Assembly (NCBI GenBank): GCA_965655095.1
Contig: OZ296656.1
Location: forward strand, 62,620,001-62,684,000
Reading direction: 5' to 3'
Length of the DNA stretch: 64,000 bases
DNA from: Haplodiscus bocki
Lineage: Eukaryota
Shown here: in pieces, positions 6,231-44,400 of the stretch
Layout: each line of letters begins with the position of its first letter
Position numbering within the stretch: the stretch's first letter is position 1
Position numbers and translations under genes: made by a program
Notes under the pieces: generated by a model
What the model was told of the DNA's origin: nothing
Seen by the model: only the letters and a program-made list of their open reading frames with translations
Databases searched by the model: none

Positions 6231-6821
6231 CTTGATATCTGGAAAATAACTAAAATTTCCTTCTCATTTGAGAGGATCAAACTAGTCTTCAACTGAGGTA
6301 AAGTCCTAGCCTGTGGCGGATTTATTAAAACAATAAACTAAATACTCTCTTTATTTAATCTGACTGATGATTCTTTTAGATGTCCTTGTGTTCATAATAT
6401 TTATAATACTTTTCCTCTTTTGTATCTTTTCTCTATGATTTATACCTTAATTTATTTCATTTGTTTTGATACTTTAATACTATTAACTTTTCTGATATTT
6501 TGTCTTTCTGATTTTACTGATAATTGTAAGTCACCAGTTGATATTATTTACGATACTAATTTATCTGTTTATAATAATAATAACAAGGTTTCTTCACAAT
6601 ATTCACCAGATAGAAAAAGTCCTTGCTTCCGAACTCACGCCTGAGACGACCTTTGCTGAAGTGCAGGAAGGCAACAGTCGCAAAATTGAATTAGGAGACT
6701 TGTCCTGAGTTTAGGGATAGTTTTCTAGCGTGGAATAGAGTGGCTTTTGAGACTTTCCGCTGCTATTCCATAAAGACCAAGACCCCAACCACTCGCACAC
6801 TCTCTACACTTTTGCACTTCA

Positions 6822-7060
6822 CAAACTGGTGCGACAAGTGAGGCTAATCAAACTACACAAACTGGTGAAGCGACCTACCACAACAAATCAGTCAGGCACT
6901 ACCACAAAACTCAAACTGGTGAGTGAGGCTACAGATAAGCCGATAACGACAAACTGGTGAGGAAACCACCCACAAACTGGTGTGACCAACAAGACAGTGA
7001 GGCAGACACACAAACTGGTGAGACTTGAAATTTTGCAGTAAGACAAACCTCAACTGGTAA
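6822..7060 (+). repeat. Dispersed CAAACTGGTG repeats in the 5' leader
   Basis: Copies near 6822, 6858, 6913, 6950, 6974, 7011 and a degenerate one near 7051. Confidence 0.9.
6827..6840 (+). promoter_or_regulatory. Primer binding site of element 1 (tRNA not assigned)
   Basis: TGGTGCGACAAGTG 3 nt after the LTR end; TGG complementary to tRNA CCA; same 9-nt core in element 2. Confidence 0.8.
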
Positions 7061-7147
7061 ATTAAAATTTTAATTTCTTACTTTACTTTAAACTGATAAA
7101 AGAAGCCGTCGAGAGACAGACACCCACGAAACCAGACAATACTGACG

Positions 7148-16098: not shown

Positions 16099-16325
16099 AA
16101 CTAGTGGTGCTAGTTTTACACTGGTGGTGCCAGTCATATTCACTAATCTTTTCATTTCAGGCGCATTTGCTTTTCTTAGCTAGTGGTGCTAGCTCATTAC
16201 CTTTTCCACTGGTGGTGCCAGTGATGTTCACTAATCTTTTCATCTCAGGTGCATTTACTTTACTTAGCTAGTGGTGCTAGCTCATTTCCTTCATACCACT
16301 GGTGGGTGGTGCGTGGTGCCAGTGA
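16099..16325 (+). repeat. ~87-bp repeat x3 containing hairpins with a constant TGGTG loop and splice-acceptor-like sites
   Basis: AACTAG-TGGTG-CTAGTT 16099, ACTGG-TGGTG-CCAGT 16120, AGCTAG-TGGTG-CTAGCT 16178 and 16266, CACTGG-TGGTG-CCAGTG 16207; CACTAAT-pyrimidine tract-CAG|G ending at 16160 and 16248. Confidence 0.85.
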
Positions 16326-31204: not shown

Positions 31205-31722
31205 TGTTGTAAACCGGGGGTTCTTAAATTATTGCTTTGCTCTCACTTGCGCATAAGTCTCAAAAAGTTGTTATAAAAAGAACATAAATTTTAGAAAGGT
31301 CTTTTACAAATATTGGAAAATTCTAAGTCATGAGCTTTTCTGACTTAGCTGTTTTTATAAATAAGTCTTAGTGAAAATTCAAGACTCTTTGTCAGTTGAA
31401 TTTCAGGGGTGTTTTAGAGAGAGCAAAGGAAAGAGAGAAAAGAACGACTATTGCCTTCTTAACGTCCGCATAGGATCGTTTGTTTCTGTTAGCGTATTTT
31501 TCTCTCTAGCTCAGGACAGTTGTTCTGTCACGCGGCTTTTCCTTATTGGCTGAGCGTTAAAAGAATCGTCTTTTGCAATTTCATGCGAGCGCGTTGCTAT
31601 TCGCTCAGACAATCTAAATGCTAAGATAATTCCTCTTCGGATATTATTTCTCTCTGAGTCATTTTCCCTGGATATTCTCCTTTAGGAAAATGAACTAAAT
31701 TAAACGGTAGCGCATTGCTACA
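31205..31722 (-). repeat. Element 2 3' LTR (518 bp)
   Basis: Near-identical to 43239-43756 (about six substitutions by eye). Confidence 0.97.
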
Positions 31723-31826: not shown

Positions 31827-33509
31827 TTAATATTTAAATGTTTTAACAGAAAGATTAATGTTGAAGAAAGGTTGAAAGGGTGCAAAATGTTTGTAAGCAA
31901 GAAAAGTTATTAAAAGGTTTATGAGTTGAAAGTTTGAAGGGTTTTGACTGTTCTTCAACTCAGTTATTCCTTCCAGTGGGAACGTTTTTTCATCAATGGG
32001 CCATGGGAGACGGGTACATTTCTCTTTCCAGTTAGGATCTTTATCAAAATTGTATGCAATGGGGTAATATATTGTTGAGAGTTGAGTCTTGATGTTTCCT
32101 CGTTTAATGTTGAAAATTGAGTACTTCTTGTACTGTTCAACGTCCCAATGTTCAGCATGGGTAAGAAGTGCATGGAGACATCTTTCTAGCTTCTCATACT
32201 GCTGATCATCAACAGCTTGAATTAGCTGTATGGCCTCAGCTCTTTGGATGTCTATTTCCACTCTCATTACTTGTAATTGTTTGACCAGTTTATCGATTTC
32301 GGTCTGCTCTTTGATCTGGGCAGCTTTTTTATTCAAAGACTCTTGAAATCGTTTATTAGCCAGATCATACTCATCGAGTTTTTTCTTTAAGAGTATGTTG
32401 GTCTTAATCGACTCTAACAATTCAGATTGAAGAGACTCCGCTTTGGAGGTCACTTCCTCTAATTGTTGTCTGACTTCTTTGTTCTCTTCGAACAAGTCAG
32501 ATGTCACTCTTTCAGAGATTTCTACCTTTGATTCCGCGCGATCCGCGTTAATCTTGGCATTTGCTCTTGATCTGTTAGCACACCTCAGAGAAACTTTCAA
32601 GTTGTTCAGTTCAATTAGTAGGTTCTTATTCTGCTGTTCAAATTCAGCAATTGCAAATTCGGTGTCCCAGAGTGATGCTGTTAATTGAGTATCTGGTTGG
32701 AAATCGGAACTTTCTGGGTCTGTTTGAGTTCCAATTGATGTTGTTCCGGTTGAATAGGATCGATTACAATTGCGAGTAGTAAAATTAAGATCTGCCTGGC
32801 TTGACGAATTGCTGGGCAAATATGATGATAAAGGGCTGTTGAAAATAGGATTGGGGTCGTCAGGGAACGCAGTGACGACACCAAAGGGAGCTTTAATAAG
32901 AGAGTTCAAATCATGATTGTAAATCACGTATTTCCTTTCGTCTGGGATCCTGTCCTTTAATCTCCATTGATTAAGGTCTTTAGGAATGTTCACCATCAGG
33001 GCAGAACTTCGATTAGCAGGGATTACAATGGAACAATTCAATTTTTTATTGAAGAGTCTGACTTCTCCAATACTACGGGGCAAAGACCATTCATTACAGT
33101 CTTTACGAATGCCATATTTAAGAAAAGATATAAATTGTGGATCAGCGTTATCAATATTCAGTTCCCGCTCTCGTTGAATTTCCAATCTCTCTTTGAGACT
33201 TGGAAAGGATTTTTTATCCTTCGGGAGACCATCATCCAAACGTGAGAGACCACGTGAGGGTCCTTGTCCATCATCGAGTCTCATTGACAAACGATGAGAG
33301 GGTTTAGGATTATTGCCAAGTCTCATTGACTTTTTGGCACTGATGTTTTCTATTGATTCGGTGGCAACACGTTTGTTGGCATTTTGGTAAATAGAGACTG
33401 CCTTTTTATTAATTCGTCTTGCTTTTCTGGGCTTGAAGGTAACGTTAGGGGGTCTCAGGTCACTGGGGATAAAACCTTCAGGCTCGAATATTTCAATAGA
33501 GTCAGACAT
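31827..33509 (-). CDS. Post-env ORF4, 560 aa, intact, long coiled-coil, unknown function
   Basis: Uninterrupted ORF between env and 3' LTR; heptad-rich E/K/Q/L region roughly aa 285-440. Confidence 0.8.
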   Translation of the reverse strand: MSDSIEIFEPEGFIPSDLRPPNVTFKPRKARRINKKAVSIYQNANKRVATESIENISAKKSMRLGNNPKPSHRLSMRLDDGQGPSRGLSRLDDGLPKDKKSFPSLKERLEIQRERELNIDNADPQFISFLKYGIRKDCNEWSLPRSIGEVRLFNKKLNCSIVIPANRSSALMVNIPKDLNQWRLKDRIPDERKYVIYNHDLNSLIKAPFGVVTAFPDDPNPIFNSPLSSYLPSNSSSQADLNFTTRNCNRSYSTGTTSIGTQTDPESSDFQPDTQLTASLWDTEFAIAEFEQQNKNLLIELNNLKVSLRCANRSRANAKINADRAESKVEISERVTSDLFEENKEVRQQLEEVTSKAESLQSELLESIKTNILLKKKLDEYDLANKRFQESLNKKAAQIKEQTEIDKLVKQLQVMRVEIDIQRAEAIQLIQAVDDQQYEKLERCLHALLTHAEHWDVEQYKKYSIFNIKRGNIKTQLSTIYYPIAYNFDKDPNWKEKCTRLPWPIDEKTFPLEGITELKNSQNPSNFQLINLLITFLAYKHFAPFQPFFNINLSVKTFKY

Positions 33510-33692
33510 GAGGAATGTTCTGAAATTAAATCAAAGAAGTGAGTAAACAAAAATTGAGGAAAATATGTTGAGAAAAAAAAGATTTAAAAAAATTCAACAC
33601 AGCGAGTAAATAAGTGTTTTTTTGTTTTTGTTTTCGTTTTCCCCTTTTTTTTCAATTTTTTCGAGTTTCTTTTTTCTGTAAAGTTAAAAAAA

Positions 33693-36083
33693 TTAAGGTG
33701 GGGGTAATGGAGCATTTCCATTAGTGTTCGGAGCATTTCCGTTATTAGAAGTATTAGGAGCGTTTCCATCAATACTGTTATTCCAAAAAACGCTTGAAGT
33801 ACTGGGAGCATTTCCGTGAGTACTAACAATTGAATTTAGAGGGGCATTCCCCGATGAATGAAACACATTAGGATCATTTCCTTGTGACTCGGTTATGTTT
33901 GAACTAATCGGAATTGGATTGTTGACAATATGTACATGAGGGTACAAAGAAGTTGGATTTTCTTCGTACATTGGTGCAGCTAAGGTTTCATTACCTGTAA
34001 CGTTCTGCATACGAAGATTACCATTATTTTTGTTTTCATCAGTTTAGTACATTGGGGTCTGTAGTGAGAGAACAAACAAGTGAAAAGTGGCACCTAGCAT
34101 AGTTTTGACAAAACCGAAAGTGGCACCAGAAACTTTTCGAATTTCAAGTCCGCGGAGGACAATAACAACAACATCAATAAAAAACTTTACCAAAAGGAAA
34201 CAAGCAAAAAAGTTTCCCAAACATTGAATGTAATATCCCAAAAGACCAAAAGTTTCTTCAAACTTGTCGACGAAAAAGGAAGGCGTCAATAAATGATCCA
34301 TCAGAAGTCTGTCATCTAGACTCAAAAGGCGTTCTAAGTTTCCAGGATCGGAAATTCGAACTGTATTGCCTTGTGTCGAAATGGTTCTTGTAAGCTTCTT
34401 TAGGACAGTGTCGGAAACTGAAGCATGGATTATATTATCCCAGAAATTTTTCATTTGCTTGGGAGTATACATTCCAGCACGCCTAGTGTCGAAAGTAGGA
34501 AACTGAGTAATGTGTCCAAGTTCAGTTGGCTTGAACAACAAAGGTTTATTAAAAGGCATGGGATCAGGTAAAAGTTGATACCAGGAATTGTCATTCTCGA
34601 GATCAAGTTGAAACACATTAGTGTAATCACCCAAACAGGGTATCTCGGATGCGAAGTCATAAGTCTGGCGGGTGATAGGATCTAAAAATTTAGTAGTCCG
34701 TTCAAACAAGATCGGAATCCGATCATAGCATTTATCAAGCACTCTTAGAGGCGACAAAATTTTAGGACAATGATACAACCAAGCGACACTTCCATCGGTG
34801 TCCAAAAACATAGACCTGTTCCCAGTTAGCATATAACCGGCAAGCCTTGTATTTTGCATTGCTAACATTAGAATTGTTAACATTTGAGTACGCTCAAGTT
34901 CGCATTGATTTTGCAAGAGCGTCATTTCTGAATGTCTCAATTGCTTGGTGTTGAAGTACATTATGTAATCCAATTATGTTCCCAAGTGCAATTCATAATC
35001 AATTTCATCCGCGCCGACAGAACGCCCAGGTTGAGCACCAACCCATTTGCCGTTTACTTCGCTAAAACTTAAAGACGTATAAGAGACCTGGCTCGTGTTG
35101 TCAATCGAAATATGATATGCGTTAGATGAATATTCCTTTGTTCGTAGTTCTCCACCTGGCATTGCGACACCTCCTTGGTAATTCACAAACAGACTTTCAA
35201 AATTTGTCTTGTACAATCTTTCCGGTTTTCCACATAGCTCATAGCTTTCAGGGAAAACTTTAAATTTTATGTTCATTCGCTTTCCAGTGTCGTTGAATTC
35301 ACTAAGAAAGAAGAATTGATTTTCCTCTCGATCCGTTGTCAAAGGATAGTGCAGCATTTTTGCATCTTGTGTGAGAAATTTTGTCATCACACAATTTTCT
35401 GGAGTGTCCCAGGTATATGCAAAAGAATCGAGAGTAGTGGTCTCGCAACCACCCTCCATTAAAAGACATGGAAGTTTCTTCCGGTCCCTATTGGAAACCT
35501 CTTTGGTCCCATAATTATAAGTCAAGTTGACACGTTGCATTAACGTTTCAAAAGTGTAGTGTTTGATTTGGCCGCTAGTACATTCAATTGTTGAGCTAAC
35601 AGCTTGGCCATCATTGAAATTTGATTGTGTCTTTGTATCAAATTCAAAGGGAACATCAAAATTTTCATCAAACGCTGTGATTTTGATTTTTTTGGACTTC
35701 GATGCAAGTCTACACATTTCAGGTGTGACTATCATGTCATAAGTCATGCTATTTTGGTCATGCACGTATGACGTATGCGACAACATTCCACAATTGTATC
35801 GAAATACATGGACCTTGACAGAACACATTGTTGCTGACAGGTCGGTGCGATAATTTTTTTGGTAGAGTGTAATAGTAGCCGGAGCGATATACAAGTTTTC
35901 AGGTGAAATCTTGCATTCAGCTACTTTGTTCAGTGAGTACATTCGATTGTCCTACCTTTTGGTACAATCGTAATGAGAAACAATTAACTCTTGCGACACA
36001 TTGTCTGTGTAATCCACTTCAAGAGTTTTAGTTAAGGAATTAAAAAGAAAAATAATAAAGACTAATAGGTTATTACGCGTCAT
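33693..36083 (-). pseudogene. env: env-like class III fusogen-like glycoprotein (~797 codons, three in-frame stops)
   Basis: MTRNNLLVFIIFLFNSLT signal peptide at 36083, VSHYDC, YSLNKVAEC, NQCELERTQ...LAGYMLTGNRSMFLDTDGSVAWLYHCP, TM segment; all fragments are in one frame. Confidence 0.85.
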
Positions 36084-36106
36084 TGCTGTTTTAAGAAAAA
36101 TGAGAA

Positions 36107-36194
36107 GCACTAGATGTTGTAAATGCATAAAAACACCAGATGTTGTTATAGAAATACCAGATGTTGTATTATCTACAGAAACACCAGATGTTGT
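36107..36194 (-). repeat. Four internal copies of the element's own LTR-end/PBS junction (ACAACATCTGGTG)
   Basis: + strand GCACTAGATGTTGTAAA 36107, CACCAGATGTTGT 36134, ACCAGATGTTGTA 36156, CACCAGATGTTGT 36182 versus the true junction GCACCAGATGTTGTAAA at 43231. Confidence 0.9.
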
Positions 36195-39100
36195 GGTTAA
36201 TTAGATGGAGGTATAAAAGATACAAATGCGTTGAATAGCATAGGATTTGTTTGGAATGACTTGGCGAGTTTTTTTTGAGATTTTTGTGATTAAATAGAGA
36301 AAGAAGTAGTAGAAGGTGAGAGAAGTTTTGGAAGTATGGCTTCCCGTACCACTCGCGAGGAATATTTCGTAAAGTTCCTGTGTTTCGTGAGCGTGGAGCA
36401 GTGCCAGTACTAGTTGACTGAAAATTGTTAGGATTAATAGAAGTTCGAGGTAAAGGACTAGGTGTAGTCGGTTGACTGGTTATGACTGGTGATTCCGATT
36501 GAAATGAAAGAGGAGTGTGAGGAGATGAGTGTGGAATACCAGAGTCAGGTGAACTCGCTGAGAAATTCGGCGTCAAATGGCAACTGTTGTCTTTAACAGG
36601 CGACGTAATAGTCGTGTCCATTCGTGACGGTCTACATGTGTCAGGAAAGATCGGTAAATAGTCATTCAAATGTTGTCGTTAAACAATTGAATCGATTGGT
36701 TGATTTAAATGAGAGAGTCGGCATTTTGCATATTCATTATAGAAATGCTCGGTTTTGTCGTCGTTGAAAGGCTTCTCGTAATTGGATACTAAGTTCGGTA
36801 TTTCATTGTCACGAGGAAAATATTCAACAAGGTGATTGCGATGGACGACTTGAGTCCTCGTCGGATGTGCGTCGAGAGCAATCTCGTAATTAACCTTCGT
36901 AATTACTTTAGTCACTATGTACGGTCCACTTCGGAGTTCGCACAATTTTTGAGATTTTCCGAAAGCAACATTATGATTTTCCAAAAGAACTTTTTGTCCA
37001 ACTCGTAGTGGTTTGGCAAGTTTGTACTTGTTTCTGTAGGATAAAGATCGATAGTTGGCTTCTCGGACTTTCCGATATACTTTGCGATAAATATTTTTGA
37101 ATTGAGTTTCGCGGTTAAGTAAATCCATCGAGCTTTTCGAGAATAAAACATTGTCAATGCATGAATGACTTGTTTTTTTATTCACATGCGTATGATTGGG
37201 TAAAGATTGACAAAATTCAGACTGACATAAATCATTGTCGTCTCGAACTAGGCCCAATTTCAGAGAAATTGGTATTTGAGGTTTAAAACCAAAGACAATT
37301 TCATAAGGAGTTGTTCCAGTTCTGGAATTTACTGAAGTATTGTGTGCAAAGGCAAATTGACAAACCAACTAGGCCCAATTGTTTCCAGCTTCAGACAGGT
37401 AACAACGGAAATATCTACTCAAATGTTTATTCTGTATTTCATTTTTCCCATTGGTCCATGGCGACCATTTCGTTCTGGGAGCATGAGTTATGCCAAATTC
37501 CAGAAGGAAAGTAGAGAAATCGGTACTCACGAAGGAAGTCCCTCGATCATACACAAGCTTTTGAGGAATCCCAAAAGAAGTTATGAACGTAGACATGGCT
37601 TCGATAGTATGAGTAGTATCAGTTGATTTAACTGGATACACTTGAATGAAACGTGAAAAAGCGTCTGTCACAACCAAACAATGGTGTTTGCCATCACTCA
37701 TTGGATTCAGAGGTCCTTTGTGGTCAATGTGTACAGTGTGGAATGGGTAAGGTACTTCCTCTCCCCTTTTTCATTGGGAGCTGTGTTTTGATCCTTTCGG
37801 ATTTGTTTATTCTTTCGGCAGATTAGGCAACTCTTCGTTAGAGTTCGTACCCATTTATACATTCCAGGCCAATAGAAAAATCGTTTCAAAGACAAAAGAG
37901 TTTTTTCAGAACCCGGATGACCAGACAATCGATGGTCATGTGCAGCATTGAATGCTTCGATGAAACTACTTCGTGGTAGGCAAATTTGCTTAGGTGAATG
38001 TTTGCTTTTGCGGCAGACTAATTGTGTTTCTTTGTCGACAAACAGTTTTTCAAATTGATTTGCATAGCCAAGTAGGCCTTTGCATTGTCGTGATTCTACG
38101 TCTTTTGTGGGCAATTTGCCTCTTGATATCCATGAACGGACAATTTTTAAGACGGAATCATTCTCTTGATTCACCAGGATATTATCACAATCCAAAGTGT
38201 CAGTTGTCAATTTCAGTGTTTTGCTTGATTCATGCACGAAAAAAATGGATGGAGTACTATAAACATTTGTTTTCCGGAACTCTTCAATCTCTTGATTCAG
38301 AGCGAGGTCCTCGTCGGATGCCTCATCGTCACTGATTTCACTATCAGACTCAATTTCTGAGTAAAAGTTTTCATGAACTTTGGCTTCCACAACCATTGGT
38401 GGAGCTTGCCATTTTCGTCTATTGTTAATGTTTTTGCCTTCTCGGAAGGAATCAGAAACATTATACAGAGCTTTAGGTGACTTCGAGTTAAAAATTGTAC
38501 AAATCATTTCAGTGCCATCATTTTTAAGGTGAAGTGCTTTTGTTTCACCCAGATGTGTGCAAACAATTGGATAAAAATCATCATTTCCATCATCAGCAGG
38601 GCTGTTGTGGTCAATGAGATATTGAACTTCTTGTCCGCTTTGGTTGAAGAATCTAATATCTTTGGGAACTTCTTTATGAGCCAATTGGTGACCGTTCAGG
38701 TCCTTCAAGGAAACATTTCTACTCAACAAATCAGGAAAAGCTAAGTTTTTTCCAGGAGTCCAGATGATTTGGAGATTAGTGAACTGTAAAATGATCACTT
38801 GATAACGGAAGAATCGGTGAGACAATCTTCCTTTTCTTGTCCACAGGTACAACAGTGGCTTGTGATCACAAAAAATTTTGATCGGATGTGGTGAACCAAT
38901 GATGAAATGCTCATAAGTTTGTAGAGCGGATATGATTCCACAAAGTTCACGATGCAAAGTTGACATCTTTTGTTCATCTTTTGTGAACACTCGAGAATTG
39001 AACGAAACTATACGTTTTCCACTTGGAAACTCTTGTACCAAGATGGATCCAGTACCAATGCTGGATGAGTCAACATGAATGTGGAACGGGTATTTAGGAT

Positions 39101-41259
39101 TGGGTACAGCTAGAATAGTTTCTTCACTGAGTCTGTCTTTAATGTTCTGAAAAAGTTTTTCATGCTTTTTCGTCCATTTGAATGGGACATCATCTCTCAA
39201 GAGCTCATAGGAAGGTTTTGAATCCACATGCAAATTCTTTATGAATGTACTGTAGAAACCTAAACTTCCGAGTACGCGCATTACGTCTCTCTTGTTTTCA
39301 GGGCTCTTCAAATCTTTCAGGCCTTGGACCTTTTTGGCAACTGGTTGAATCCCTTTGTCGGAAACAATGTGTCCAAGGAATTGAACTTTTCTCAAAAACA
39401 GTTTGGTTTTGTTTGGGGCAGCTTTCAGTCCAGATGATCTCAAACATTTGAAATAAGATTCTAAATTTTCCCACATTTCCGCTTTGGTTTTTGCTTGGAG
39501 GATCACATCGTCAATATATGTGATGGCTTGTTTCTTAGCAATCATTTCAGCAAAATGGATCGTCATGATTCGACCCAAGAAATTAGGAAGACCGAATAGG
39601 CCATAAAATCCTCGTTCGAACATGTATTGTTTTCAAACCAACAACGAAACTGGTTAGTTTCTTGGTATCTTCTGAAAGAGGTACCTGATTATAGGCTGAA
39701 GCCAAATCACTTGTGATATAGTATACACCGTCAAGTCTAGTCAGTAACATTTGTACTGGCTCTAGAGGCCATGAATAGTTTGACAAATCGGTTATGGAGT
39801 TGAAATATCGAGCGTCAATCACCAATTTGACGGTATCTCCTTTGGGTAGAATGATGATAGGATTAGTAAATAACGAACCCATTTCAACATCACTTCCCAT
39901 TTCGCGAATGATTCCTGCTCGTTGCAGTTCATTGAGAAGGATTTCTAGTCGATCTCTGTAATGCAAAGGTACCTTGGAAGGTCGTTACTTCCGTAATTCA
40001 GCATCTTTTTTAAATTTCACATGGAATTCTTGAGTGATTCTTCCAACATCATAAGTAAATTTAGAGAAAACGTCATTGTTTTCAATTAAAACTCTCAAAA
40101 GATGTTGTATTTCACTGTCGGTAATATCAGATTCAGAAAAACCAAAGTTTTTCAGAAACGTTTGTTCAGTAGGACTGAAATCAGAAAAGAACTTTTCGTT
40201 AAGTTGTTTTCGTTTGATATCACACGCCAATTTAGGCGTTTGAGGTTGCAGGGATTTTACCTCATTGGAAAAATCTGTAGCTAATTCGTTTTGTGACACA
40301 GCCATTTCTGATAGTTTGTTTCGGGAGTCGATTTCAGTTAAAGAGTAAATGTATGGTTCAGTTGAACAAACATGCATGTCGTTGTTCAGTTCTGAATCGA
40401 ATGCCTTGACAAAGTCAATGAAGGCAACGTTGTCAATCACGCTCATTGTTTGAGTTGTTTCTTGAGTGAAGTCAAGGAGAGTATATCCAAGAATTCCCTT
40501 TCTAATAGTAATACTATTGGGATTTGGATTATTCAGCATTAAGGGGTACTTTGATTCATCATGTGAACAATAGACATGATAAGTATAAATTCCAGTGTCA
40601 AGAACATTTCTATGTAAACGAAAACTTGTTCCTTTTCGAAACAAATGCTTGTCTTCGTCTTTAGCTATAAGCGTCAATACTCGCGTTGAGTAAGGTGCAA
40701 TAGTCAAATCTTGTGACAGCTCCACAGAGTTCACTTGCGAAAAATACGGAAAAGGTTTATCTAAATAGGGTGATAGTTTAACACACTTGCCGGGGAAGAC
40801 CGTTAAAATTAGCATTGGGTTTCTCAGATTAATAAATTCACCAAATTTTGCTAAAAAGTCCATTGCAAGAATGTTCATTCGTGCCTCGGGTGAATCAGAA
40901 ACATAAACAGTATGTTCAATCACACAAGAATATTCTACGTCAAACGCAGATTGAATCACTATTTTCCCTTTCATGGGCATGGCATGTGCATTTGCAGCCA
41001 AAGGTGATTTTTCAAGAGGCATTACAACTAATGGTTGAATTTTTTCAATCTCTGTGAATGTATCACAGTTGATAATGGAGCACGTTGCGCCAGTATCAAT
41101 CAGAAACTGAGTGCTAAGGCCATTACTTTTATTTGTGTCTCCGACGGCGTATTGGAATAATTCAATAAAAAAATGTTGGCCGGGCATTCCAGCTATAGAT
41201 GTGTGAGGAATGTCATTTGGATCCTCACTTTCTTGGTTCGGAGACTTGATTATTTTAAA
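36169..41259 (-). pseudogene. pol: pol polyprotein: protease, dUTPase-like segment, RT, RNase H, spacer domain, integrase (three stops, two frameshifts); no macrodomain
   Basis: FLIDTGATCS, LVIDARY, YIDD, IHVDSS...CDHKPL, HDHRLSGHPG...CLIC, VYDRGTSF, NGKNEIQN, GPY motif. Confidence 0.96.
41235..41259 (-). promoter_or_regulatory. -1 frameshift site gag-pol
   Basis: T TTA AAA (41259-41253) directly before the gag TAA; pol is in the -1 frame; 7-nt spacer then GTCTCCGA as in element 1. Confidence 0.8.
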
Positions 41260-42347
41260 GGATTGCATGACTGCAGTGTGTCATAAAATGAGTTAACCTT
41301 GTCAGGTCTTGCCTCAAATCGAACAGTTCCAGAGTAACTGTTACTTCTGCTACGATTGCGGTTTGCAACGTATGGACTGTCGCTACGACCTCTTTGGGTG
41401 TTAGAGCGGTCATTGGAGTTCGGTCTGTAAGTATTTGGCGATTTTGATCGGTTGGGATAGTTTTGTGAGTATGTCTCTTTCGGTTGGGGAGGTGCTTTTT
41501 CCTCATTCAGTTTTTTTCTCTTGAGTGACCAACAGAATTTTACTGTATGGCCGGATTTTTTGCAGTATGTGCAAAACCGAGTGAAATGTTGTTTCATTTT
41601 AGGATTGTTTGGATCATAGGTTGCATTGATCTGATGATTCTTCACCATATTGCTGATCTCATTCAACGTTTTCTCAATACTTGTGAAACGTGAGTCAGTG
41701 GTTACAAAATTGGAACTTGTTTGTTAGAAACCAGACATTTCAGCGCTAATTACAAGACTTGTGTCTTTGTTTATTATTAACGTCTGTAACGCGTCTCATG
41801 TTTTGTTGGGGTCTTCAATTAGTACCTGGTGGGCTTTCTGTTTAAGTCCAGGGGGTGTTAAACCACGTATAAAATAATCTTTATACTTTCCAATTCGTTG
41901 GTTTTCACATGCTGTTCGCGCATTTGCGTCAGCGTCGGAAGGCGTTGGCCATCCTTTGTCAACTAATGTTTTTATTCTGTGTATATAACTTTTGATGTTT
42001 TCGTCGGGCTGTCTCTTCAAATTTTCAGCTTCGATTCGGAATCGGTACTGCATTTTCCCGTCAGTGAATCGAGCAATAAACTGAGTTTTTATTTCACCCC
42101 ATGTCAATGCAGCGTCGAGTGAATCGAACCACTCAGCAGCTGGACCGCGTAAGACGGAACCGAAAAGGGCTTTCCTTCGATCGTCATATACGGTTTGAAT
42201 GTTATTTTCATTTGTAGCAGGTCTACTGCCTAGCGAGAAACTGATTTTCTTCTCTAGCAAACGAACAAACGCTGTCGGGTCTTCACTTGAGTCAATCCCG
42301 ATAAATTTCTCTAATGCTAAATCTGGATATGCAACAGTGTTCGCCAT
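41250..42347 (-). pseudogene. gag: gag with CCHC zinc knuckle (two in-frame stops)
   Basis: MANTVAYPDLALEKF..., LRGPAAEWF...TWGEIKTQFIARF, CTYCKKSGHTVKFC. Confidence 0.92.
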
Positions 42348-42595
42348 TTTCTATTTAACAATTTTAGTTGCTCCAATTTTGTTCGATTTTGTGCTCTTTG
42401 CACTACAATTATCTATTCAAGTTGCTTTAACTTGAAAATGCTCCTTTGTTTATCGATTAATCACGTAATTATACTGTGATTTTGTTATTACGCTTTGTAA
42501 TAACAAATGAAATTTTGAATTTTGTGTGGAAGAGTGTCTTTTACTCTTTCACGTGCTTCGCTTTGAATAAGAATTTTATTCAACTCAAAATTTGT

Positions 42596-42740
42596 GTATT
42601 GGAGTTTCTTTGCTCCTTCACAAAATGAAATTTTTCTGTTGGAGTTTCTTTGCTCCTTCACAAAATGAAATTTTTCTGTTGGAGTTTCTTTGCTCCTTCA
42701 CAAAATGAAATTTTCTGTTGTAGTTTCTTTGCTCCTTCAA
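42596..42740 (-). repeat. ~39-bp tandem repeat (about 3.7 copies) in the 5' leader, each with a GGAG/CTCC hairpin
   Basis: (TGTTGGAGTTTCTTTGCTCCTTCACAAAATGAAATTTTTC)n on the + strand. Confidence 0.9.
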
Positions 42741-42908
42741 AATCAATTTTCAAAACAGTAAATTTGGACGGGTCTGTGTATTTAAGACCTAACACGGAAT
42801 AAATCCAAGGCAGCAGGCGAGGTGAATTTTGGGCTTTCCAAATTCTTGCTAAAACCTCACAGGGGTCGTGCAATTTAAGATTCCCTCTTGCTTCAGAACC
42901 GAAATTCG

Positions 42909-43098
42909 TCCACGGAACCCGCACACGCCAATACCGAAGCTAGCGTAGTGGATACAGGTTAGACTCGGGTACCAGGAGTATATTGTGCAAATTAAGGATC
43001 ACTCTTGCGTCAGAATAAATTTTTCCACGGAACCAGCACACGCTATTACCGCAGCTAGCGTTAGTGGATACAGGTTAGACTCGGGTACCAGGAGTATA
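42909..43098 (-). repeat. ~74-bp direct repeat x2 in the 5' leader, each with a hairpin exposing the palindrome GGTACC
   Basis: Copies 42909-42982 and 43024-43098; ACTC-CTGGTACCC-GAGT on the element strand at 42963-42979 and 43079-43095. Confidence 0.88.
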
Positions 43099-43220: not shown

Positions 43221-43236
43221 TGCTCTGGTCGCACCA
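43221..43236 (-). promoter_or_regulatory. Primer binding site of element 2
   Basis: TGGTGCGACCAGAGCA 2 nt after the 5' LTR end on the - strand. Confidence 0.82.
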
Positions 43237-43238
43237 GA

Positions 43239-43756
43239 TGTTGTAAACCGGGGGTTCTTAAATTATTGCTTTGCTCTCACTTGCGCATAAGTCTCAAAAA
43301 GTTGTTATAAAAAGAACATAAATTTTAGAAAGGTCTTTTACAAATATTGGAAAATTCTAAGTCATGAGCTTTTCTGACTTAGCTGTTTTTATAAATAAGT
43401 CTTAGTGAAAATTCAAGACTCTTTGTCAGTTGAATTTCAGGGGTGTTTTAGAGAGAGCAAAGGAAAGAGAGAAAAGAAGGACTATTGCCTTCTTAACGTC
43501 CGCATAGGATCGTTTGTTTCTGTTAGCGTATTTTTCTCTCTAGCTCAGGACAGTTGTTCTGTCACGCGGCTTTTCCTTATTGGCTGAGCGTTAAAAGAAT
43601 CGTCTTTTGCAATTTTATGCGAGCGCGTTGCTATTCGCTTAGACAATCTAAATGCTAGGATAATTCCTCTTCGGATATTATTTCTCTCTGAGTCAATTTC
43701 CCTGGATATTCTCCTTTAGAAAAATGAACTAAATTAAACGGTAGCGCATTGCTACA
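43239..43756 (-). repeat. Element 2 5' LTR (518 bp)
   Basis: Direct repeat of 31205-31722, flanked by TSD TTAC. Confidence 0.97.
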
Positions 43757-43760
43757 TTAC

Positions 43761-44400
43761 AAAGAATGATCACTGGCTGTCTAGCGTCGTTCACGCTGTT
43801 CAGAAAAAGAACAGAGACGAGATCCCGAAAAAAGCCGGTCGTTTTCATTCAGTTGTGGACAATTTTTGAACTCGAGTATACCAACGAGCACGTTGTGTTA
43901 CCCAAAAAATATTCAATTACTCATTTTGCTGCATGTGGGTCATATCAGAGCCAACGAAATTTTGGCGGAGGCGCGACGTGGAGAATTGTATTAAGGGAAA
44001 CGCGAAATTTTGCAAGCTCTGCAATGCTGCCAGTAAGAACTCAAGAACTCCAGAACCGCCTGCTAAAAAATAAATTAAGTCCTTTTGCCATACCGAATGA
44101 AGATGATCAGTTAGAATTTACAGAGCCCGATTTGGATAAACGTAGTAGTTGTATTTCAGAATCGTTAAATCAGTACAGTAAAAAAACAATTGTTAGAGTT
44201 TTTGATATGCGAAAAACGGAAAAAATACATTCATTCCGGAAAACGCTCCATCCGTTGATGGAAAAACCAAGACAATCCGGTCTGAACACTTTCAAAAATT
44301 TGGTGGAGCTTTCAGAAACTTTCGAAAAAATCAAAATAAGATACGCATTGCTACAAATTTAACCACGGCAAACAATATCATCCAACGGAATAAAGAAACG
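43761..44400 (+). pseudogene. Decayed integrase-like remnant of an older element interrupted by element 2
   Basis: 198-aa ORF 43766-44362 with HVVLPK tether-like motif; same strand as the RNase H-like remnant left of element 2; no intact catalytic motifs. Confidence 0.3.

Follow-up and report, generated by a model that had tools for sequence, protein, structure and literature searches.

An array of LTR-junction copies before env in a Ty3/gypsy-type retroelement is probably functional

Why should an LTR retroelement carry copies of its own LTR end and primer-binding site (PBS) just ahead of env? The question is raised by Element 2, a 12.5-kb Ty3/gypsy-type LTR element with a gB/chuvirus-like env, on the minus strand (43756-31205) of the window, the 64,000-nt stretch of Haplodiscus bocki DNA analysed here. 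How env is expressed has been worked out in only a handful of invertebrate env-bearing retroelements, and the repeated motif provides a compact, testable handle on it. Our sequence comparisons indicate that the junction-repeat array is real and probably functional.

Element 2 is bounded by two 518-nt LTRs (5' LTR, 43239..43756; 3' LTR, 31205..31722; all Element 2 features given below lie on the minus strand). The LTRs have TG...CA ends and 6 mismatches between them, with a GTAA target-site duplication on both flanks, and a short GGGGTGAGT polypurine-like tract precedes the 3' LTR. Pfam matches run in the order gag, protease, RT, RNase H, integrase and then env, with protease and the first RT piece below curated cut-offs. 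The gag and pol region (36331..42350; PR-RT-RNase H-IN) contains stops and frameshifts in the window copy. The env frame (33696..36083, ATG at 36083) encodes a fusion protein with a signal-peptide-like N-terminus that matches PF24664 (Monjiviricetes fusion; E 2e-26 and 4e-10). It carries in-frame stops in the window, unlike the env frames of about 840 aa that are open in many genomic copies of the family. A 567-aa open frame without a Pfam match follows env (31830..33530); short pieces of it are weakly similar (24-41%) to L189, an element from another assembly. The 12-nt PBS (43225..43236) is complementary to the 3' end of tRNA-Met(CAT) and is predicted to form a 6-bp hairpin together with the 2-nt spacer at the junction. 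By its LTRs, pol order, PBS and gB-type env, Element 2 fits an env-bearing Ty3/gypsy (Metaviridae-type) element. We counted 144 exact LTR/PBS junctions of the family in the 1.5-Gb host genome.

Pol and env are separated by a non-coding spacer (36084..36330), and the pol stop follows WYGKPYF directly in 6/6 copies checked. Within this spacer, 37-111 nt before the env ATG, lie four copies of a 12-mer, ACAACATCT(G/A)GT, that matches the element's own LTR-end/PBS junction (43231..43247). The cores of units 1, 2 and 3 (36183..36194, 36156..36167 and 36135..36146) are exact copies, and that of unit 4 (36109..36120) has one mismatch, a G>A change that is characteristic of last units in the family. 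As a 17-mer (43247-43231), the junction recurs at 36197-36181 and 36170-36154 (13/17 each), 36149-36133 (14/17) and 36123-36107 (16/17). When the 11.5-kb interior was shuffled 500 times under an order-2 Markov model, the exact 12-mer occurred with a mean of 0.002, against three observed, and the 12-mer at up to one mismatch with a mean of 0.056, against four observed. These scores bear out an earlier note on this DNA, which had described the junction as copied four times just before the env ATG with up to 16/17 identity. What lies beyond chance is a seed copy and its retention, not four independent events.

A coding role for the array was rejected: its units do not share a reading frame and are spaced by 21, 26, 27 or 33 nt. 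An in-frame ATG is present upstream of env in 54/83 copies, and in copies read in the env frame a stop then follows. The idea that the array is a relic of an internal LTR was also rejected, LTR similarity being confined to the junction in four families. An Rfam search returned nothing near threshold.

The motif is a family-wide feature. All 30 loci retrieved by DNA similarity carry four units at up to 2 mismatches, although this set, the best 30 of 40 scored from 368 candidates, is biased toward the array; 25 further distinct copies retrieved via env protein alone all have four or five units. Over 83 distinct copies, unit number is four in 50, five in 18, three in 11, two in 3 and one in 1, some of the low counts being larger arrays that have decayed. 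The motif is thus conserved in other copies, the check that the earlier note had proposed. Its further claim, that such copies are not expected from ordinary tandem duplication, does not stand: the multiplicity is a 26-nt tandem expansion, and tandem arrays are common in the non-coding DNA of the clade. TRF calls the four units a tandem array, and spacing in relatives is mostly 26 nt.

In most members of an older radiation (env DNA 65-72% identical), a single unit is recognisable, some 25-30 nt upstream of the ATG; these relatives keep the same LTR/PBS junction wherever a junction was found. One copy of an old lineage, L159, has four units with spacers unrelated to those of the modern family. 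In a 44-row env tree, the modern family sits on a branch of 0.25 with support 100/100 and L159 falls outside it. Because one-unit relatives lie nearer the modern clade than L159 does (97/88), two expansions are likely; the motif probably expanded in two lineages separately, though L159 is a single, mosaic copy. Copies on the shortest branches carry 4-5 units, and unit number grew in younger copies. The genome yielded neither of the sister families that share 50-60% env identity (P0009, P0011), and a search of viral contigs found none. Metagenome contigs yielded 5 loci, of which the one that is near-complete lacks the motif.

To assess constraint, we used the 41 copies with a 26/26/26 layout, other layouts being excluded, and took variants shared by at least 3 copies as changes in replicating lineages. 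The 48 core sites carry 2 shared variants, whereas the 30 spacer sites have 15 and the 63 env four-fold sites 22; in further classes, there are 26 for the 135 upstream intergenic sites and 27 for the 322 env first and second positions. Rare variants are similar in all site classes, at 0.7-1.2 per site. MK tests separate the cores from the spacer (p 0.0002) and from env four-fold sites (p 0.0006), but unit shuffling could inflate the core-versus-spacer contrast, and shuffling or conversion could homogenise cores without selection. The contrast with the upstream intergenic spacer is weaker (MK p 0.12, site p 0.03). Both halves of the core are constrained alike, with shared variants at 1/24 sites each. 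In 18 old relatives, the single unit is kept no better than its flank (0.61 vs 0.69). In the modern family, the array is likely a control signal for env mRNA rather than junk, because its copies are better conserved than nearby neutral sites. Given a core that looks constrained and a motif that is family-wide, a cis-acting role near env is plausible.

We tentatively prefer the possibility that the array is a set of repeated pseudo-donor or protein-binding sites that modulate the use of a splice acceptor 2 nt upstream of env. In this view, env mRNA would arise by joining the donor-like CTG/GTG in the junction to the AG that precedes the env ATG by 2 nt. Of this presumed donor, the units preserve the GT and the A/C-rich half; near the branch point, they could serve as pseudo-donors or could bind the host or Gag-derived factor that recognises the donor itself, and the array would thereby balance spliced env RNA and full-length genome. 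Splicing that starts inside the PBS would remove the PBS, which would explain why no spliced copy has reinserted; if this reading is true, the position of the donor would keep env mRNA from reverse transcription. The array lies directly upstream of a pyrimidine tract and AG (36086..36106), a candidate 3' splice acceptor. The AG is retained in 73/78 copies, a figure that is in line with the ordinary decay of dead copies and alone does not establish an acceptor. Element 1, on the plus strand of the window, repeats its junction as CTG/GTGA sites in its leader and has many acceptor-like sites before env. There are also precedents: passages in the literature describe spliced env RNA in ATHILA (PMC7197481) and a repeated element at the foamy virus env acceptor that regulates splicing (PMC5294762). 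The junction is also the best donor-like site across 920 nt of leader (CTG/GTGCGA). Against a role in splicing, it fits only 4/7 consensus positions, and the units are poor donors after the GT. The weak constraint relative to the upstream intergenic spacer and the ordinary retention of old single units also count against it, as does the lack of a U5/PBS copy before env in families B (P0017) and C (64% identical to P0015) and in the L189 element.

Because the junction donor is weak, two other explanations stay serious. It is somewhat unlikely, in our judgement, that the array is largely neutral, a chance or captured 12-nt look-alike that slippage or RT template switching multiplied and concerted evolution kept uniform; it would then be an ordinary tandem repeat. 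A junction-spanning 13-nt exact match was reached in 1/100 shuffles, unit number varies from 1 to 5, old single units are not specially conserved, and the clade's non-coding DNA is rich in tandem arrays (40-nt x3.8 here; 88-, 29-, 16- and 259-nt in Element 1). However, concerted evolution should homogenise whole units, yet mismatch between units within one copy is 0.08 in the cores and 0.48 elsewhere. Moreover, the same motif probably expanded in two lineages, and core variation is as low as that at env first and second codon positions. Alternatively, though we consider it unlikely, the array could be a cluster of transcription-factor sites in DNA, serving as an enhancer or internal promoter for env. 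We take AACATCTGG in the core to resemble Twist/Hand-type sites, and CATCTG to be the CAGATG E-box. Elsewhere in the element AACATCTGG forms only at the 5' LTR/PBS junction. CANNTG is present in 3/4 units and kept in some variants, as CATGTG in L159 and L129 and as CATTTG in a young 5-unit lineage. A leader without a strong donor is consistent with this role, as is the TATA-like box that families B and C have 137-243 nt upstream of env, which hints at internal promoters in the clade. Yet the last unit is kept although in nearly all multi-unit copies it has no E-box, Element 2 has no TATA within 270 nt before env, and the junction repeats of Element 1 (CAAACTG) are not E-boxes.

It is improbable that the units are secondary sites for the tRNA CCA end, tRF-3 or Gag/NC, working as a decoy, packaging or dimerisation signal. 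The conserved match does end at TGGTG, the complement of the last 5 nt of the tRNA, and hairpins with a TGGTG loop and covarying stems precede env throughout the Element 1 family. As RNA, units 1 and 3 are quasi-palindromic, with a self-duplex of -11.9 kcal/mol that ranks in the top 3% of 15-mers, and the units fold on each other (array folding z -2.35). The palindrome is lost, however, in units 2 and 4 and in several L159 units, and long-range pairing between array and junction was rejected, the array being absent from the 14 best partner windows of the junction. The PBS matches the 3' end of genomic tRNA-Met(CAT) genes over 12 nt only, the same in 12/12 copies viewed; the array units share only the 5 nt of the CCA end with tRNA-Met. 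Their predicted duplexes with the tRNA-Met 3' end reach -4 to -10 kcal/mol, against -24 kcal/mol for the PBS. The units have no tRF seed match, and passages of PMC7472051 state that tRF action needs a seed or near-full complementarity. Two roles offered in the earlier note, decoys for 3' tRNA fragments and secondary tRNA binding sites, thus lose ground. The Ty3-type bipartite PBS is no closer a fit: the units repeat the CCA-end contact, and a T-arm complement occurs once only, at 41229.

We regard as extremely unlikely the remaining proposal, that the units are template-switch or premature second-strand-transfer sites joining LTR to env. The transcription-regulating sequences of nidoviruses have an identical short core in the leader and before a downstream ORF, and in Element 2 the same core is found in the leader and before env. 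However, Element 2 has no RdRp, no joined DNA products and a core before one downstream ORF only: the 567-aa frame has no junction core copy ahead of it, and among downstream ORFs only env has one. To our knowledge, Pol II does not switch templates as the nidoviral RdRp does. Internally deleted copies that retain env are common. An env start could be assigned to 64 of the 100 junctions listed, at PBS-to-env distances of 1.6-1.9 kb (16), 2.2-2.8 kb (2), 6.8-7.5 kb (44) and above 8 kb (2), the shortest being 1614 nt. But the short class mainly reflects one shared gag-pol deletion (42098 to 36692, with an 11-nt filler) that retains the array and breaks about 500 nt from it, so that the motif is not where deletion breakpoints fall. 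Among genome copies, 0 have an LTR end fused to an array unit, against 144 normal junctions, and a wide-gap search run without a positive control found 0 LTR ends within 120 nt of an env start. No LTR-to-array joint is present among the matches listed from four public runs, which behaved as genomic DNA. At the DNA level, then, the leader-joining signals suggested earlier find no counterpart. The amplified gag-pol-deleted subfamily (L002, L004, L009, L025, L045, L065 and others) has kept the 3' part together with env and the array; on the left, the break falls at a GG/GT site near 42098, and the flanks by the break look more diverged than the rest.

Related elements place the Element 2 array in a wider setting. 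Since families B and C have no internal U5/PBS copy and the L189 element has none before env, the array is not required clade-wide. Some 280-380 nt ahead of env, families B and C each repeat 11 nt of the PPT/U3 junction; in both, the repeat matches the family's own LTR start and not that of the other family. The copy is exact in 10/10 B loci and 8/10 C loci, and 11 nt was reached in 0/100 shuffles for either family. This copy (L093-L112) is central-PPT-like and at the same time fits the donor consensus perfectly. After it come a structured block common to both families, in which the stems covary, and the TATA-like box.

In Element 1, whose family was also returned by the P0024 search, a repeat search located copies of its own LTR-end/PBS junction in the leader (6815..7062, plus strand). 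Across that family, 15/20 fetched regions have 3-8 motif hits in the first 330 nt, usually including the junction itself; the remaining 5/20 lacked the junction. Many of these leader repeats (L257-L274) are split PBS copies in which both ends are kept and the middle is lost, and some carry a tRF-3 seed match and a donor-like CTG/GTGAG. Before env, Element 1 has five TGGTG-loop hairpins among several TTTCAG acceptor-like sites (16099..16325, plus strand). In its family (L214-L243), 30/30 loci have 3-9 such hairpins some 550-750 nt ahead of env; the TGGTG loop is fixed, the stems covary, and the commonest hairpin variant resembles the PBS hairpin at 12/15 letters. The loop is complementary to the last five letters of the tRNA, and these hairpins are possibly more interesting than the array itself.

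Copies of an element's own LTR boundary thus recur in sequence in all four families examined, and the exact arrangement of the Element 2 array is lineage-specific. Own-boundary copies near env in sister families suggest a general design in the clade. One could envision, by analogy and as a decidedly improbable scenario, that the clade builds an env-control region from copies of its own LTR boundaries: U5/PBS repeats in Element 2, mimics of the PBS hairpin with UGGUG loops in the Element 1 family and PPT/U3 copies in families B and C. The UGGUG sites would capture the tRNA CCA end or Gag, as a T-box antiterminator does, and would couple env expression to priming and packaging.

The negative regulator of splicing of Rous sarcoma virus is a pseudo-5' splice site that restrains splicing and keeps genomic RNA. 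It is single, lies in gag and binds U1/U11, whereas the Element 2 units are tandem and adjoin an acceptor-like AG. The purine-rich C element of foamy virus is, like the array, a short repeated motif at the env 3' splice site and branch point (PMC5294762); it consists of GAA repeats inside pol, whereas Element 2 has a non-coding 12-nt U5/PBS copy as a putative regulator. The bipartite PBS of Ty3, as described in part of PMC5371799, resembles Element 2 in its short 5' PBS and in a further tRNA-related segment that lies thousands of nt away from it. Its distal segment pairs with another part of the tRNA, whereas the Element 2 units duplicate the CCA-end part and the U5 end. Central polypurine tracts, in the relevant passages of PMC7197481, are internal LTR-boundary duplicates and match the PPT/U3 copies of families B and C; the Element 2 array duplicates the opposite boundary (U5/PBS). 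By sequence, Element 2 appears to fit the gB-env Ty3/gypsy class of PMC13524379, whose supplements may already include the family. The passages of that paper available to us describe LTR-gag-pol(PR-RT-RH-IN)-env elements with a PF24664 env, a tRNA PBS and many near-identical copies, as in Element 2; unlike Element 2, those passages present no junction repeats, and they make no mention of splicing, subgenomic or polypurine. In the literature searched, with few subscription papers within reach, we found no description of U5/PBS repeats before env.

Several smaller features of these elements deserve mention. The PBS hairpin (43224-43238, minus strand), also present in families B and C and in L189, has 6-8 bp and a GCG loop, and its outer pairs covary between families. 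The Element 2 PBS, cut to 12 nt, is without the tRF seed half. In one family copy (L137, G000:C1:184534757), more than 18 nt of additional tRNA-Met complement follow the PBS, as though RT had gone further into the primer. No tRNA was found in the 200 kb beside the window. Genes resembling tRNA-Met form a long tandem array with a period of about 955 bp on G000:C9, near 74.2-74.4 Mb (L143); ARAGORN calls some of its units Val or SeC, and many are probably variant or decayed. The letters AGCAATG are common to the env start context (36073-36087) and the first letters of the LTR (43745-43756, minus strand), which may be chance. A third copy of the first 12 letters of the LTR lies at 44355 on the minus strand, 600 nt upstream of the 5' LTR. 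The Element 2 leader holds two more tandem arrays, at 42588-42739 (40 nt x3.8) and 42868-43098 (about 115 nt x2).
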